From contig CP170459.1 of assembly GCA_047947115.1 (NCBI GenBank), forward strand, positions 3,584,001-3,648,000: a stretch of 64,000 nucleotides of DNA. The letters are read 5' to 3'. The stretch's first letter is position 1. The number at the start of each line of letters is the position of its first letter. Position numbers and translations under genes: made by a program. This stretch comes from Verrucomicrobiota bacterium. Lineage in GTDB: Bacteria; Verrucomicrobiota; Verrucomicrobiia; Limisphaerales; AAA164-E04. Of this stretch, positions 29,930-42,166 are shown one piece after another. The notes under the pieces are model-generated. The model saw nothing but the letters and a program-made list of their open reading frames with translations. It was not told the DNA's origin and made no database searches.

Positions 29930-30006
29930 CAAAAAAATAGACAGGCCCTCTTTGGGTGTTAGGGTTCTCCTTTCCGAACAAGACAGTTAGAGAAAAGAAC
30001 CGGCAT

Positions 30007-32238
30007 ATGAAAGAAACAGGTTACAAAGACTATTTGTGGAAGGATTTAACGGCGGGGTTGGTGGTGTTTTTGGTGGCTCTACCCCTGTGCCTCGGGATTG
30101 CGCTGGCTTCCAATGCGCCATTGATCAGCGGACTGGTGGCCGGGATTGTGGGCGGCTTGCTTGTTTCCTGGTTGAGCGGATCGCACACCAGTGTCAGCGG
30201 CCCCGCCGCGGGCCTGACGGCGATCGTGTTTGCCCAGATCACCAAACTTGGATCTTACGAAACGTTTTTGTGTGCCGTGGTGTTGGCCGGGGTCTTTCAA
30301 GTCTTTCTCGGTTGGATCAAGGCTGGTTCACTTGCAGCTTTCTTTCCGTCCAGTGTCATCAAGGGTTTGTTGGCTGCGATCGGGATTATTCTCATATTGA
30401 AACAAATACCGCATCTCTTTGGGCATGATCCCGATTGGATGGGGGATATGTCTTTTATCCAGGACGACGGCAAAAACACTTTTTCCGAAATTCTCGCAAC
30501 GACTTTCGATATTCACCCGGGGGCGACGGCAGTTGGGTTGTTGTCACTGATCCTGCTGGTGGTATGGGACAAAACCCCGCTCAAAAAAATTCCCGTTCCT
30601 GCGCCCTTGGCGGTTGTTGTGTTTGGCACTCTCCTGTCGAAGTTGATATCGCCGATGGGAGGGCTGATGAGCATCGGCGCCAGTCATCTGGTTCAGGTGC
30701 CGGTTTCAGATTCTCTGGGAGCGGTGATGGATTCTCTTGCTTTTCCGAATTACAAGGCATTGTTGAGCGCCAATGTGTTGGTCGCGGCTTTGACCATTGC
30801 TGTTGTTGCCACTTTGGAAACCTTGCTCAATCTTGAGGCTGTCGACAAGTTGGATTCCAAGCAACGTGTTTCACCTCCGAATCGTGAATTGATGGCGCAA
30901 GGGGCTGGCAACATGGTTTCGGGTTTGCTAGGAGGCCTGCCCATCACATCGGTGATCATTCGCAGTTCCGTCAATATCGCCTCAGGGGGACAGACACGCC
31001 TGTCCTGCTTTTTCCATGGTGTCTTCCTGTGCCTGACGGTGTTGTTTGTTCCGTCCGTTTTGAATCAAATTCCACTTTCCTGCCTCGCGGCCATTTTGAT
31101 GGTGACCGGATTCAAATTGGCAAACCCACAATTGTTCCGGCGAATGTGGAAAGAAGGGGTTCTCCAGTTTACCCCGTTTCTGATCACCATCATCGCCATC
31201 GTGCTGACAGACTTATTGATCGGTATTGTTGTAGGGATGGTGATTTCGATTTGTTTCATTTTGAACAGCAATTTGAAGCGTCCTTTGAGGAAGATTCATG
31301 AAAAACACGTGGGCGGAGAGGTTCTGCGTATTCAGCTTTCGAACCAGGTGAGTTTTCTTAATCGAGCTTCACTTCTAAGGACCTTGAACGAAATTCCGAA
31401 CGGCAGTCAGGTGGTGATTGATGCGCGGGACTCGGATTATGTGGACCCGGACATTTTAGATCTGCTGTCGGATTTTGAACAGCAAACCGCTCCCGCGCAT
31501 GATTTGAAACTGAGTTTGATCGGGTTCAAGGACCGGTACAAGCTGGAAGACAAGGAGCATCACATTGATGTTTCGACGCGTGATATTCAGGAGAAAGCCA
31601 CACCTCAGCAGATCTTGAATCTTTTGAGAGAAGGCAATAAACGCTTTGCGCGCGGAGAGAAGTTGTCACGCGATCTCATCAAACAGAGAGACGCCACTTC
31701 CCAAGGACAGTTTCCGCTGGCAACGGTGCTAGCATGCATGGATTCTCGAGTGCCGACCGAACTGGTGTTCGATCTGGGGATTGGAGATCTGTTCAGTGTT
31801 CGTGTCGCTGGAAACATTGCCTTCAACAAATCGATCGGCAGTTTGGAATTCGGTTGCGCTGTTGCCGGAGCCAAAGTGCTTGTCGTTCTCGGTCACACCA
31901 AATGTGGGGCCGTGAAAGCCACCATTGATTTGGTTGACCAGGGTAAAACCGCGTTGCAGGCCACTGGGTGCGAGAACCTGGATTCCGTCACAGATGTGAT
32001 TACCTGTTCCGTGAATGCCGAAACCGAGACATCCAAGGATCGATGCTCGCAAAACGAAGCGTTTGTTGATCGTGTTGCAAGACTCAATGTGCTGCAGACC
32101 ATGGAGCAGATTACCCAGAACAGTCCGACGCTGAAAAAACTCGTTGATCAAGGCGAGATACTTCTCGTTGGGGGTATTTATGACGTGAGCACCGGGCTTG
32201 TGGAGTTTCTGGGTGAACATGCCCACGGTGAAAGTTAA
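30007..32238 (+). CDS. SulP anion transporter-STAS-beta carbonic anhydrase fusion
   Basis: DLTAGLVVFLVALPLCLGIALAS, VSGPAAG, NRELMAQG; CA ligands CMDSR and HTKC, RVAGN. Confidence 0.95.
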   Translation: MKETGYKDYLWKDLTAGLVVFLVALPLCLGIALASNAPLISGLVAGIVGGLLVSWLSGSHTSVSGPAAGLTAIVFAQITKLGSYETFLCAVVLAGVFQVFLGWIKAGSLAAFFPSSVIKGLLAAIGIILILKQIPHLFGHDPDWMGDMSFIQDDGKNTFSEILATTFDIHPGATAVGLLSLILLVVWDKTPLKKIPVPAPLAVVVFGTLLSKLISPMGGLMSIGASHLVQVPVSDSLGAVMDSLAFPNYKALLSANVLVAALTIAVVATLETLLNLEAVDKLDSKQRVSPPNRELMAQGAGNMVSGLLGGLPITSVIIRSSVNIASGGQTRLSCFFHGVFLCLTVLFVPSVLNQIPLSCLAAILMVTGFKLANPQLFRRMWKEGVLQFTPFLITIIAIVLTDLLIGIVVGMVISICFILNSNLKRPLRKIHEKHVGGEVLRIQLSNQVSFLNRASLLRTLNEIPNGSQVVIDARDSDYVDPDILDLLSDFEQQTAPAHDLKLSLIGFKDRYKLEDKEHHIDVSTRDIQEKATPQQILNLLREGNKRFARGEKLSRDLIKQRDATSQGQFPLATVLACMDSRVPTELVFDLGIGDLFSVRVAGNIAFNKSIGSLEFGCAVAGAKVLVVLGHTKCGAVKATIDLVDQGKTALQATGCENLDSVTDVITCSVNAETETSKDRCSQNEAFVDRVARLNVLQTMEQITQNSPTLKKLVDQGEILLVGGIYDVSTGLVEFLGEHAHGES

Positions 32239-38504: not shown

Positions 38505-38814
38505 GAGTGTCTTTTGCAGGATTTTTGGTTGCCTCGTTGAGGGTTTGATCGTCCCGCCCCGATTCTGATCGAATCCGAAGTCTCAACAGCCCAGGACGGG
38601 ACCACCTCCAAGGCATGCAATGCCCGATGTCCATCCTGTAAATTCTATTCATTCCCTGAAAAGGACACCTTCCGAGGTTGGACGCCAGGTTCCAGGAAAT
38701 GCAGTTAGGAGTGAGTGTGTGTACCACATCCTGGCGCATCCGGTTATTTTCCATAGAAAGGAGTTCTGGTTTTTATTTGCGGATTTTGTTGTTTCGTGGA
38801 ATAAAAATGGTCAG

Positions 38815-40101
38815 ATGCTACCTGAACTAACCATGCGAGTGGTGCGTACGACGGATCCCAAGGCCTTGATGAAGTTTGCATGGCTGTTTGGGATCAAGGG
38901 CATGTTGTCGGTTGAAAGATTCAAACGCAGGGCGAAAAAGGGTATTTATTTCCCTCCTTTCCTATATTTGAGTATCATCAACAGCTGTAATCTGCGCTGT
39001 CAGGGATGTTGGGTTGATGTCGAGTCACCTCGGGAAAGCATTGATATCAAGCGCCTCAATCGCTTGATTAACGACGCCAAGACGCATGGGAACAGTTTCT
39101 TCGGGCTGCTTGGAGGAGAACCCTTCATGCATCCGCAATTGTTGGATGTTTTGGCTCATCAGCAGGATGCCTATTTTCAGATTTTTACCAATGGCCAGTT
39201 GATTACCGACAAAGTTGCGGCCCGATTGCGTGAGTTGGGGAATGCGACGCCTCTCATCAGTATCGAGGGACGCGAAGTGGTCAGTGATCAGCGGCGTGGC
39301 AAGAAAGATGTTTTTAACCGTACCCTAAAGGGATTGGACACTGCCATTCGCCATAAATTGTTAACAGGTGTCGCGACCAGCGTATGCAAATCGAATATAC
39401 GCGATTTGCTGACCGAATCCTGGTTGGATGAGTTGATTGATCGGGGTGTGCATTACGTTTGGTTTCATTCCTATCGCCCGGTAGGGCCCATGATGCATGA
39501 AGATTTGGGACTCACCAGGGAGGAACTGGTTGAGACGCGGCAATTTATTACCGAAATGCGCACCAAGAAGCCAATTGCCATAGTGGACGCTTATTACGAT
39601 CATAATGGCAATGCCCTGTGCCCCATGGCAACCGGGATCAGTCACCATGTGAATCCCAAAGGCGGGATCGAACCCTGTCCAATCATCCAGTTTGCCAGCG
39701 AGTCGATAGATGATGAACGCGGTATTTACAACACTTTGACTCAGTCCAAATTCCTGAAGGACTTCAGGGAAGCCACTGCGCGAGAGACACGTGGGTGCGT
39801 CATGCTGGAACGCCCGGATTTGGTGGAGGAGTTGATTGAGCGCCATGACGCGAAGGACGTGACGATCCGTCAAACAGCCTTGAAGGAGCTACAGGCGATG
39901 AAACCACGGCACAGTCAATGGTTGCCTGGAGATGAAATACCGGAGAAACATTGGATGTATCGCTGGGCGAAACGATTTTTCTACACCGATTTCGGTGTGT
40001 ATCAAAACATCCGAAATATGAAACCGTTGCATGAGCAGAACGGTCATAGCAATGAAAGCCAACAGGATTCCTCGACGCGAGCCGTTGTGGAAAAGGACTA
40101 G
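38815..40101 (+). CDS. Radical SAM protein with SPASM/twitch-like C-terminus
   Basis: CNLRCQGC, GGEPF, FTNG, ISIEG, CP...G.IEPCP. Confidence 0.92.
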   Translation: MLPELTMRVVRTTDPKALMKFAWLFGIKGMLSVERFKRRAKKGIYFPPFLYLSIINSCNLRCQGCWVDVESPRESIDIKRLNRLINDAKTHGNSFFGLLGGEPFMHPQLLDVLAHQQDAYFQIFTNGQLITDKVAARLRELGNATPLISIEGREVVSDQRRGKKDVFNRTLKGLDTAIRHKLLTGVATSVCKSNIRDLLTESWLDELIDRGVHYVWFHSYRPVGPMMHEDLGLTREELVETRQFITEMRTKKPIAIVDAYYDHNGNALCPMATGISHHVNPKGGIEPCPIIQFASESIDDERGIYNTLTQSKFLKDFREATARETRGCVMLERPDLVEELIERHDAKDVTIRQTALKELQAMKPRHSQWLPGDEIPEKHWMYRWAKRFFYTDFGVYQNIRNMKPLHEQNGHSNESQQDSSTRAVVEKD

Positions 40102-40117
40102 ATGACAGGACGATTGA

Positions 40118-41851
40118 ATGGATTCAGGAAATAATATACTCGGGACGGCGCCTTTGAAATTGCCTAAATTGACGCCTCCTCAACGGTTTAGAGCTCCCAA
40201 GAAAAATCTTCCGCAAACACCGGAGGAGCGTGCCGGGATTCTTCAGGCCGTGCGGAATTACGTGGCTGAACACAATCCTGTTCCCCCTATGCCCATGGAT
40301 GACATCAAGGTGCATGCAGACAAGCTGGTGGAAATGTTGGGGTGCGATCCGGTTTATCGTGATTATATCGGGGTGCTGATCAACAACGAAATGTGGCGCG
40401 ATTCGCTCGCTGCTATCCCTTATGAGCGTCGGTTGTTGTTGTTACCCAAATGTCTGCGTATTGAGAGCAAATGTCCTGCCCCATTCGATGAGTTCGGTTT
40501 GTTGTGCAAACAATGTGGGCTTTGTTCCATTCAGGACCTGCAAAACGAGGCGGAAAGACTTGGATATGCCGTGCTGGTGGCGGAAGGATCGGCCATCGTG
40601 ATGTCCCTGATCCAGACCGGTAAAATCGAAGCGATTGTAGGTGTGAGTTGCCTGAGTGTTTTGGAACGCGCTTTTCCTTACATGGAAGCGGCGGCGGTTC
40701 CGGGCGTGGCCATTCCGTTGCTTCAGGATGATTGCATCGATACCACGGTAGATCTTGATTGGATCTGGGATTACATCCATCTGACCAGTGAGGACCGTAG
40801 TTTGCGCCTGGATTTGGGGGGATTGCGAGAGGAAGTTGATTTTTGTTTTACCCCGGCTTCGCTTGAATTGATTATGGGGTCAGGAAGTGGTGAAACCGAG
40901 AAATTAGCCAGGGAATGGCTCATGCGTGCCGGCAAACGGTGGCGTCCGTTTTTGACGGCATCGGTCGTCAAAGCCCTTTCCGATAACAAGGAAGAGGGTC
41001 TTTCTTCCGATCTGCAGAAAATTTGTGTGGCAGTGGAATGTTTCCACAAGGCTTCGTTGATTCATGATGATATTGAGGACAACGACGATGAACGATACGG
41101 GGAACAAACTCTGCATGCTTCACACGGCATTCCGCTTGCCCTCAATGTAGGGGATTTATTGATTGGTGAAGGTTACAGATTGATTGCCGAAACGAACTTA
41201 AGTCCTGAGCAGAAATCCGCGATGCTGCGTATTGCTTCCGAGGGCCATCGCCAGCTCTGCCGCGGGCAGGGAGCCGAATTAAGCTGGATGCGTCAACCGC
41301 GTCCTCTCAAGTCCGTGGAGGTGTTGGACATTTTCCGCAGCAAAACGGCACCTGCATTCGAGGTGGCTCTTCAAATGGGAGCTGTCTTTGCGGGTGTTGA
41401 GATCCATGCTGGAGTCAGTGAAACCATACACGCGTACAGTGAAGCGCTGGGCATCGCTTATCAGATCCGTGATGATTTATCGGATCACGGTGAAGAAGGG
41501 GAAACAAACGATCTGGAGCAGCTTCGGCCCAATCTGCCTCTGGCACTCGCGCATGAGAAAGCGAAGGGTGAGGCCAAGGAACAACTCGAAACTGCTTGGA
41601 AACGCGAGTTGAACGGCAAGGTTTCTCACAAGGATATCGAAGAACTTTGCAAGCAGTTGAATGTCTTGGATCGTTCGGAACGGTTGCTGGAAGCCTACAA
41701 GGAACAGGCGATTCGTTCGATTGCCGAGCTTGATAATCCAAGTCTCAAAGGTCTGCTTCGTCGCTTGATTGGTAAAATCTTCAATGACACCGAAATCAAG
41801 GGATGGTGCAGTGAAGTGCTAGAAGATCAATTGCATGCCGAAACCCGGTAG
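40118..41851 (+). CDS. DUF116-polyprenyl diphosphate synthase fusion
   Basis: N-terminal RRLLLLPKCLR..KCPA...CKQCGLC and GVSC; C-terminal GKRWRP, HDDIED (FARM), GQ, KTA, QIRDDLSD (SARM). Confidence 0.9.
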   Translation: MDSGNNILGTAPLKLPKLTPPQRFRAPKKNLPQTPEERAGILQAVRNYVAEHNPVPPMPMDDIKVHADKLVEMLGCDPVYRDYIGVLINNEMWRDSLAAIPYERRLLLLPKCLRIESKCPAPFDEFGLLCKQCGLCSIQDLQNEAERLGYAVLVAEGSAIVMSLIQTGKIEAIVGVSCLSVLERAFPYMEAAAVPGVAIPLLQDDCIDTTVDLDWIWDYIHLTSEDRSLRLDLGGLREEVDFCFTPASLELIMGSGSGETEKLAREWLMRAGKRWRPFLTASVVKALSDNKEEGLSSDLQKICVAVECFHKASLIHDDIEDNDDERYGEQTLHASHGIPLALNVGDLLIGEGYRLIAETNLSPEQKSAMLRIASEGHRQLCRGQGAELSWMRQPRPLKSVEVLDIFRSKTAPAFEVALQMGAVFAGVEIHAGVSETIHAYSEALGIAYQIRDDLSDHGEEGETNDLEQLRPNLPLALAHEKAKGEAKEQLETAWKRELNGKVSHKDIEELCKQLNVLDRSERLLEAYKEQAIRSIAELDNPSLKGLLRRLIGKIFNDTEIKGWCSEVLEDQLHAETR

Positions 41852-41953
41852 GATGACCTGTGGCATGACGTGTCACTTTGACTCGTTTGTCATCAAATGG
41901 TTACCTGGGGCTTGAAATTATTTGCCTCATGCTAGGTCTTTGATCTGGTCCTG

Positions 41954-42166
41954 TCAGGGCGGGAGAAGACGATCCTTGCTGATGGATAGCCTATCTGCCG
42001 GGATCCGTCTTTTACGCCGGAAGCTGTATTCGAAAAGGAAAAGAAATACTTCCCTCGCATCAAACTCGCTCAACCCGAACTGCCCGATGGTGTGCGATGG
42101 GAGAAAGACTTGGTTTATCATGTGTTCACCAATCCCCAGGATGACGTACGAACTCTTCCGGTTCAT
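41954..42166 (-). CDS. Possible small hypothetical protein
   Basis: 70-aa ATG ORF within a 600-bp gap; no recognisable motif. Confidence 0.25.
   Translation of the reverse strand: MNRKSSYVILGIGEHMINQVFLPSHTIGQFGLSEFDAREVFLFLFEYSFRRKRRIPADRLSISKDRLLPP

Follow-up and report, generated by a model that had tools for sequence, protein, structure and literature searches.

The window analyzed here, a 64-kb stretch of contig CP170459.1 from a Verrucomicrobiota bacterium, contains on its plus strand a gene for a 428-aa radical SAM protein and, 16 nt downstream, a gene for a 577-aa protein in which a DUF116 domain is fused to a polyprenyl synthase domain (Table 1). Intergenic gaps of 310 nt 5′ of the radical SAM gene and 469 nt 3′ of the fusion gene set the pair apart, as had been noted when the pair was first picked out from the window; the first open reading frame (ORF) can be extended to a start at 38620, and the alignments of its homologs begin at 38815. 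The original prediction saw in the two genes a candidate undescribed isoprenoid coupling or membrane-lipid pathway. Gene content and co-occurrence with an SHC-like cyclase support an isoprenoid pathway, and the pair is not self-contained but the remnant of a five-gene core that consists of genes for a Cys-rich ferredoxin, the radical SAM protein, the DUF116-synthase fusion, a small, prenyltransferase-like alpha-alpha toroid protein (hereafter the small toroid protein) and an SHC-like class II cyclase. Neither a cyclase nor any further gene of this system lies within the window, in agreement with the earlier remark that no terpene cyclase stands beside the pair.

Table 1. Coordinates in the window of the radical SAM and fusion genes and of their features
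Feature	Position	Strand	Comment
Radical SAM ORF	38815..40101	+	428 aa; a subfamily of its own within the Mss-motif family
CNxxCxGC cluster motif (C58, C62, C65)	38986..39009	+	Mss block I; invariant in 21/21 aligned
Three additional invariant cysteines (C269, C288, C328)	39619..39798	+	Predicted auxiliary Fe-S site; 21/21 homologs
DUF116::trans-isoprenyl diphosphate synthase fusion ORF	40118..41851	+	577 aa
DUF116 domain	40325..40774	+	Flavodoxin/Rossmann-like; predicted Fe-S or metal site (C112, 119, 130, 133, 136, 178, 206)
Polyprenyl synthase domain	40901..41614	+	PF00348, 142 bits; nearest solved structure 1wy0
First Asp-rich motif DDIED, then R326-Y327	41066..41098	+	Canonical R-R; RY in 110/110 family copies
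Second Asp-rich motif DDLSD	41471..41485	+	Complete; D452, D453, D456 in 80/80; following GK loop absent

The association of these genes was evident in a survey of the neighborhoods of such fusions, which the original prediction had proposed. At the 80 top-ranked genome loci of the fusion, the partners found were the radical SAM protein (33 loci), the small toroid protein (36), the ferredoxin (31), a small Cys protein (27), a CobW-like GTPase (22), a GcvH-like protein (20) and the SHC-like cyclase (6). The radical SAM gene lies immediately upstream of the fusion at 30 of the 68 genome loci with room for it and, among cluster-type metagenome loci, at all 19 in which the contig runs beyond the radical SAM gene (23 loci were retrieved, many of which may derive from related samples), and thus the adjacency is not due to chance. 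The contiguous order ferredoxin, radical SAM, fusion, small toroid, cyclase is found in genomes G140, G145, G137, G151, G198, G219 and G178, and with one insertion in G089; 22/23 metagenome loci have cluster genes in this same order up to the contig end, and 9/23 reach the cyclase. Close relatives mostly carry Verrucomicrobiota titles, and atlas clusters point to the same proteins in Planctomycetota. In the source genome the partners are scattered, with the SHC-like cyclase at C1:520546-522456, the small toroid gene at C1:4607455-4608333, a GcvH-like gene at 4665129 and the CobW-Cys-ferredoxin genes at 5481410-5483846.

Co-occurrence does not depend on the genes being neighbors. Among 161 genomes of the phylum, the source genome included, the radical SAM protein has 18 matches at 1e-20, 14 of them strong (E<1e-90) and four weak (29-38% identity), and the fusion has 18 at 1e-25, 14 of them full fusions (E<1e-80) and four short, synthase-only proteins. 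The identical 14 genomes, and no others, match the radical SAM protein strongly and also match the full fusion, the SHC-like cyclase and the ferredoxin; the small toroid protein is found in 10 of them at 1e-10. In a sample of 61 genomes of the order (drafts at a completeness of at least 90%) 35 encode the fusion, 33 the radical SAM protein and 36 the cyclase, with all three in 32, none in 24 and discordance in five, so that the expectation that radical SAM and fusion genes occur together in other genomes is borne out in the phylum and by an all-or-none pattern in 56/61 genomes of the order. The pair therefore very probably belongs to a pathway that includes the cyclase. CobW-like proteins occur in four of the 14 cluster genomes and in one genome outside, and GcvH-like proteins in three of the 14 with one weak match outside; because so few cluster genomes have them, we rejected both as core genes and regard them as accessory.

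We also note some features of related operons. Broken operons keep a GcvH-like gene beside the radical SAM gene or in a block with it (L182:5686-7678, L229:4984-6647, L217 and L225), and the lysine motif GWxEGFKA is retained in 22/27 copies of this protein, which may carry a tethered substrate or cofactor. Among distant relatives (L171:10557-15998, L172:583-6222, L174:12054-17810 and L175:13735-18446) the operon is flanked by genes for PQQ_2 beta-propellers and for two NapG/NapH-like proteins, one a 4Fe-4S protein with a TAT signal and the other a Fer4_5 membrane protein, which suggests a linked periplasmic redox module. In two genomes a second, unrelated radical SAM-like gene of ~310 aa lies 5′ of the operon (L171:3578-4507, L174:5457-6380).

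The 428-aa protein has the CxxxCxxC and GGE motifs of the radical SAM superfamily and scores 51.2 bits with Pfam Radical_SAM (PF04055; cut-off 29.5), and every radical SAM motif quoted in the original prediction is present in its translation. None of the 25 NCBIfam models listed for it reaches its cut-off, the best score being 64.8 bits; identity as HpnH (37.5 bits, cut-off 225), PqqE (35.1 bits, cut-off 381), NirJ/Ahb, MoaA or a RiPP SPASM maturase was rejected on these grounds. A Pfam scan found in it no B12-binding domain, a trait of HpnJ, and the six PDB sequence matches include no Tes structure, a direct comparison with a Tes sequence not having been made. Cysteines C269, C288 and C328 align with cysteines of Mss-motif proteins and are predicted to form an auxiliary iron-sulfur (Fe-S) cluster site.

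Mss is the membrane-spanning lipid synthase of Thermoanaerobacter ethanolicus and Thermotoga maritima, for which six motif blocks and a homology cut of at least 30% identity with E ≤1e-50 have been given (PMC13159169). Our comparison uses these block descriptions and proxy proteins with Mss motifs, chiefly the plasmid protein L095 with VEPC and the block VI pattern, in place of WP_129545148.1 and Tmari_0825 themselves. By alignment, blocks I-III (CNxxCxGC, the GGE region and the N/S plus Gly-Arg region) are present in the window protein; for block IV (W, then P, Q and R) it has WFHSYRPVG, without the Gln; for block V (D-F, Y/H/N with Gly, VEPC) it has DAYY in place of D-F, keeps H.N..G and has IEPC, which is VEPC in some members of its subfamily. 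For block VI (three conserved prolines and a cysteine), where L095 has PF...PCPIIDNP, its RGCVMLERP keeps the cysteine and one proline, and the pattern matches 0/27 members of the clade described below. Identity to L095 is 28% (E ~1e-34), and to the Mss-motif proxies as a group 26-35% with phmmer E-values no better than ~1e-46.

A FastTree phylogeny was built from 150 representatives of a 1.84-billion-sequence library, reduced to the 54 that cover query residues 56-300, together with 19 locus proteins (one truncated match was dropped) and two outgroups from the source genome. The cluster-type proteins form a single clade of 27 with support 1.0 and a long stem, placed among Mss-motif proteins at 28-34% identity, and most relatives outside this clade have block I, VEPC or block VI motifs. 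A tree against Mss, Tes, HpnH/HpnJ and PqqE had been suggested; with Mss represented by proxies, the present tree bears out the supposed kinship with the Mss family, and it does not make the protein a member like any other, since the protein has a clade of its own and lacks block VI. Judged by its sequence it is a distinct subfamily related to Mss and not to be filed as Mss, and it probably works as Mss does, by abstracting hydrogen from a lipid and forming a C-C bond on it. If the protein were nonetheless an ordinary Mss that turns fatty acids into diabolic-acid-type lipids, the fusion an ordinary extra prenyl synthase and their link merely positional, then the match in blocks I-III, the partial match in IV and V and the Mss motifs of the nearest outside relatives would be explained; but the missing block VI and the 28% identity to the main proxy speak against a plain Mss, as do the long stem, the all-or-none pattern shared with the cyclase, which holds in genomes with scattered genes too, the presence of Mss-motif proteins in other genomes that have no cluster and the planctomycetes of Table S21, which have no diacids (PMC13159169). 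We consider this explanation very improbable.

As a separate observation, L095:2785-4086 (NZ_CP077819.1) lies on a Klebsiella plasmid and adjoins an IS66 gene, and a match scoring similarly was found on an Escherichia albertii plasmid; a search of plasmid sequences with the window protein gave distant radical SAM proteins only.

In the fusion protein, residues 70-219 match Pfam DUF116 (PF01976) at 125 bits against a cut-off of 25, the fold is flavodoxin-like and the seven cysteines in Table 1 are invariant among 24 diverse homologs, in keeping with the six or more conserved cysteines expected of DUF116. The DUF116-like domain with clustered cysteines named in the original prediction is thus there, with the quoted pattern in the translation, and the cysteines are predicted to bind an Fe-S cluster or other metal. 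DUF116 (arCOG02078, COG1852) has been described as Cys-rich and flavodoxin-like, with a proposed role in electron transfer (PMC5898192).

Residues 262-499 match Pfam polyprenyl_synt (PF00348; cut-off 27), and an AlphaFold2 model of the fusion (mean pLDDT 82) has as its listed Foldseek matches only proteins of the isoprenyl diphosphate synthase (IDS) fold; no NCBIfam model listed for the fusion reaches its cut-off. Besides the fold, the protein keeps K273, R276, H310, T410 and the GKRxRP, GQ, KT and two DDxxD motifs of trans-isoprenyl diphosphate synthases. In these enzymes RRG after the first Asp-rich motif and a GK loop after the second Asp-rich motif (SARM) are conserved, and the second Arg after the first motif binds isopentenyl diphosphate (IPP). 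Neither trait is found in the fusion. Arg-Tyr follows the first motif in every distinct family copy examined, as against Arg-Arg in the 3/3 housekeeping copies and in all six distinct PDB alignments listed for the domain; the alignment to canonical enzymes has a family-wide gap in place of the GK loop; and a Lys at position -6 to the first motif (K311) is invariant, likewise a family-wide departure. The synthase with both Asp-rich motifs that was originally predicted is therefore confirmed as to the motifs and is less canonical than they suggest. Arg90 of the IPP site of Rv2173 could not be mapped onto Y327 with confidence.

Ord1 and XiaM are IDS-fold enzymes that prenylate indole, with a pseudo-SARM that has no last Asp (PMC12510300); D456 is retained in 80/80 copies of the fusion, and we rejected its assignment to this all-alpha-helical prenyltransferase type. 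A related possibility is that the five genes make a meroterpenoid or cofactor, the synthase fold prenylating an acceptor other than IPP, possibly one carried on the GcvH-like protein, for use in a redox system and not as membrane bulk. That IDS-fold prenyltransferases exist at all, that the GcvH-like gene stays beside the radical SAM gene in several broken operons with its lysine motif mostly kept, that several operons continue into PQQ-type propellers and NapG/NapH-like Fe-S proteins and that the small toroid protein resembles Rab GGTase beta about as closely as it does drimenyl/meroterpenoid cyclases are all in its favor; the retained D456 and the accessory status of the GcvH-like and CobW-like genes count against it, and we think it quite unlikely.

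Four genomes of one family (G053, G068, G074 and G152; loci L129-L132) have a short stand-alone synthase domain that shares the signature ECFHKASL..RY with the fusion, has no DUF116 in frame and ends soon after the second Asp-rich motif. None of the four has a match to the cluster radical SAM protein or cyclase, and the enzyme is possibly a relic or repurposed.

The partner cyclase (637 aa) retains DxDD as DADD and falls below all NCBIfam cyclase cut-offs (SHC, OSC and tetrahymanol), with 112 bits for TIGR01507 against 431. It fits the description of the SHC-like clade of class II cyclases, which is spread over PVC, FCB, Spirochaetota and Acidobacteriota and whose substrate is an open question (PMC7306690; PMC12324236), in having a PVC host, a length within 550-700 aa, DxDD and, in relatives though not in the source genome, a polyprenyl synthase nearby. 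A polyprenyl synthase near the SHC-like cyclase had been reported in a 2020 supplement, where a non-squalene precursor was predicted (PMC7306690); the sister group of the clade consists of cyclases that act on head-to-tail C20-C40 chains, and the gamma domain of the clade is of triterpenoid type (PMC12324236). We rejected the idea that the system is a hopanoid cluster, given the TIGR01507 score and the finding of no squalene/phytoene synthase (PF00494) match in 8/13 cluster genomes; all 13 have a separate housekeeping prenyl synthase. In the source genome (L094, G000:C1:518761-522456) the cyclase gene lies 3′ of ORFs that by eye are sigma-factor-like and anti-sigma-like and is also preceded by a DCC1-like thiol-disulfide oxidoreductase gene, a hint that the cyclase is under stress control. 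The small Cys protein (CxC, DLC and ACxxR motifs; L092:6553-6999), which is fused to ferredoxin in distant relatives (for example L171:4615-5295), has no Pfam, NCBIfam or PDB match; a likeness to the N-terminal domain of HdrA, which we had presumed, was not confirmed when checked.

The altered acceptor side of the synthase, with its invariant RY and lost GK loop, would also suit a third route to a squalene-like hydrocarbon, in which the synthase couples two prenyl diphosphates, either head-to-head or in an irregular way, the Fe-S proteins and the radical SAM protein replace the reductive or radical step of Sqs/HpnE and the SHC-like enzyme cyclizes the olefin. The scarcity of PF00494 matches, the heavy Fe-S content of the system and the triterpenoid-type gamma domain agree with such a route, but fold and motifs both correspond to head-to-tail synthases, with K273, R276, H310, T410 and both Asp-rich motifs retained, and the sister clade of the cyclase uses head-to-tail substrates (PMC12324236). 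We rate this route as unlikely.

The reading we prefer is that the product of the five-gene system is a cyclic isoprenoid lipid other than a hopanoid, made without recourse to oxygen or squalene; we consider this probable on balance. Gene content, order, co-occurrence and motifs are observed directly, and from them we infer the chemical steps. The synthase domain would build or pass on a head-to-tail prenyl diphosphate of medium length, about C25, and the SHC-like enzyme would cyclize it by DxDD protonation. The Mss-related protein might then take a hydrogen from an unactivated lipid carbon and form a new C-C bond, most likely uniting two hydrophobic units, with electrons moved by the DUF116 Fe-S site and the ferredoxin and the head group perhaps handled by the small toroid protein. 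The order of these steps is itself inferred, and we think this exact sequence less likely than not. The earlier suggestion that the pair makes a prenyl chain and couples, cyclizes or modifies it is upheld as regards an isoprenoid pathway, while ring formation is likelier to be the task of the cyclase than of the radical SAM protein because the core includes a cyclase. In its most specific form, which we regard as a long shot, the system would be a route to a tricyclic C25-C30 head-to-tail skeleton of the cheilanthane type, which the Mss-related protein would link carbon to carbon to give a larger cyclic isoprenoid lipid, one that possibly spans the membrane; the cheilanthane link is speculation.

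Several points weigh against the preferred reading. The missing block VI has been described, and the kinship with Mss is drawn from motif descriptions and proxies, in a tree rooted on two distant outgroups only and with poorly supported deep nodes. The radical SAM protein probably does not couple ordinary fatty acids, because 12 planctomycetes in Table S21, among them Gemmata obscuriglobus, are without membrane-spanning diacids and without an Mss homolog (PMC13159169), a conclusion that presumes a cluster-type radical SAM protein in these strains; G. obscuriglobus possesses an SHC-like cyclase (PMC12324236). The R-to-Y change and the absent GK loop may mean that this synthase carries out no elongation with IPP whatsoever. 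Its product size is read from two residues ahead of the first Asp-rich motif, Ala at -5 and Phe at -8; the published chain-length rule (PMC6423904), a loose one, takes these to indicate chains beyond C20, at about C25. For DUF116, searches by sequence, by Foldseek and by wide structural comparison found no solved relative, the best match (Z 7.3) reflecting a generic fold only. Finally, the sampled genomes are kin and not independent, and the co-occurrence counts overstate the association accordingly.

Around the pair, the flanking genes encode DUF1552/DUF1592 proteins, an OprB porin and a methyltransferase, none of which recurs at related loci, and promoter and terminator scans gave nothing better than chance. 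Twenty RNA library runs from 14 studies each contain at least half of the sampled words of the stretch, and in two of four runs examined, which come from two studies, a single contig covers both genes (38944-42046 and 38949-41874), stretches left uncovered being given no weight; the runs were chosen by their match to the stretch itself and the contigs cannot demonstrate one transcript, so they are a weak hint of expression. Elsewhere in the window (29956-32238), judging from the sequence, a sulfate-permease-like protein appears to be fused to a beta-carbonic anhydrase domain.

Parts of this system are already in print, namely the DUF116-synthase fusion in 2015 (Psta_0175; PMC5898192) and the cyclase-synthase neighborhood in 2020 (PMC7306690). 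In a literature search that left most subscription journals outside its reach, we found no characterization of the cluster, no link of its radical SAM protein to Mss and no mention of the RY signature; a thallusin preprint considered as related work concerns the ebo operon and is unrelated, and for tricyclohexaprenol only geochemical listings and one reference title were found. The gene system is real, conserved and uncharacterized, and it is common, occurring in 35/61 genomes of the order. Work on triterpenoid evolution names the substrate of the SHC-like clade as an open question (PMC7306690; PMC12324236); the all-or-none gene set supplies a minimal five-gene list that makes this question directly testable. 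New chemistry is indicated both by the tie of an Mss-related radical enzyme to isoprenoids and by a prenyl synthase whose acceptor side is changed and which is fused to a predicted Fe-S domain. Cheilanthanes (tricyclic terpane fossils) are among the biomarkers without a characterized pathway (10.64898/2026.01.29.702649); if the cheilanthane-type route were true, bacteria would have a third class of membrane-ordering terpenoid, one formed independently of O2, and the radical SAM protein would be the first Mss-family enzyme to act on isoprenoids.

Comparison with known systems places each component as follows. With Mss the radical SAM protein shares CNxxCxGC, GGE, the N/S/G-R block, W..Y.P.G, H.N..G..EPC and three auxiliary cysteines, and its nearest relatives outside the subfamily have Mss motifs; it differs in having IEPC in place of VEPC, no three-proline block VI, a shorter N-terminus and an aromatic C-terminal motif of its own, in lying below the published 30%/1e-50 cut (as measured on the proxy) and in its tie to isoprenoid genes. 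The synthase domain has the fold, GKRxRP, both Asp-rich motifs, GQ and KT in common with the geranylgeranyl diphosphate synthase of Pyrococcus horikoshii (1wy0), its nearest solved structure, and departs from trans-isoprenyl diphosphate synthases by RY for RR, the invariant Lys at -6, Ala at -5 with Phe at -8, the missing post-SARM GK loop and the N-terminal DUF116. That domain is the Cys-rich, flavodoxin-like one whose fusion to a polyprenyl synthetase is on record (PMC5898192), but archaeal DUF116 proteins have N-terminal membrane helices and redox-gene neighbors, whereas here it is fused to the divergent synthase of a terpenoid operon.

The partner cyclase is matched to the SHC-like clade (PMC7306690; PMC12324236) by description and not by tree placement with named members. 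The text of the 2020 supplement (PMC7306690) mentions no radical SAM protein or DUF116 and the 2025 main text (PMC12324236) does not use the term "radical SAM." Hopanoid (hpn) clusters with SHC and HpnH likewise bring together a prenyl enzyme and a class II cyclase with a radical SAM enzyme for tailoring; in contrast to them, the five-gene system needs no squalene synthase, its radical SAM protein scores far below the HpnH cut-off, and the source genome has, separately from it, a canonical SHC, two PF00494 genes and two housekeeping synthases.

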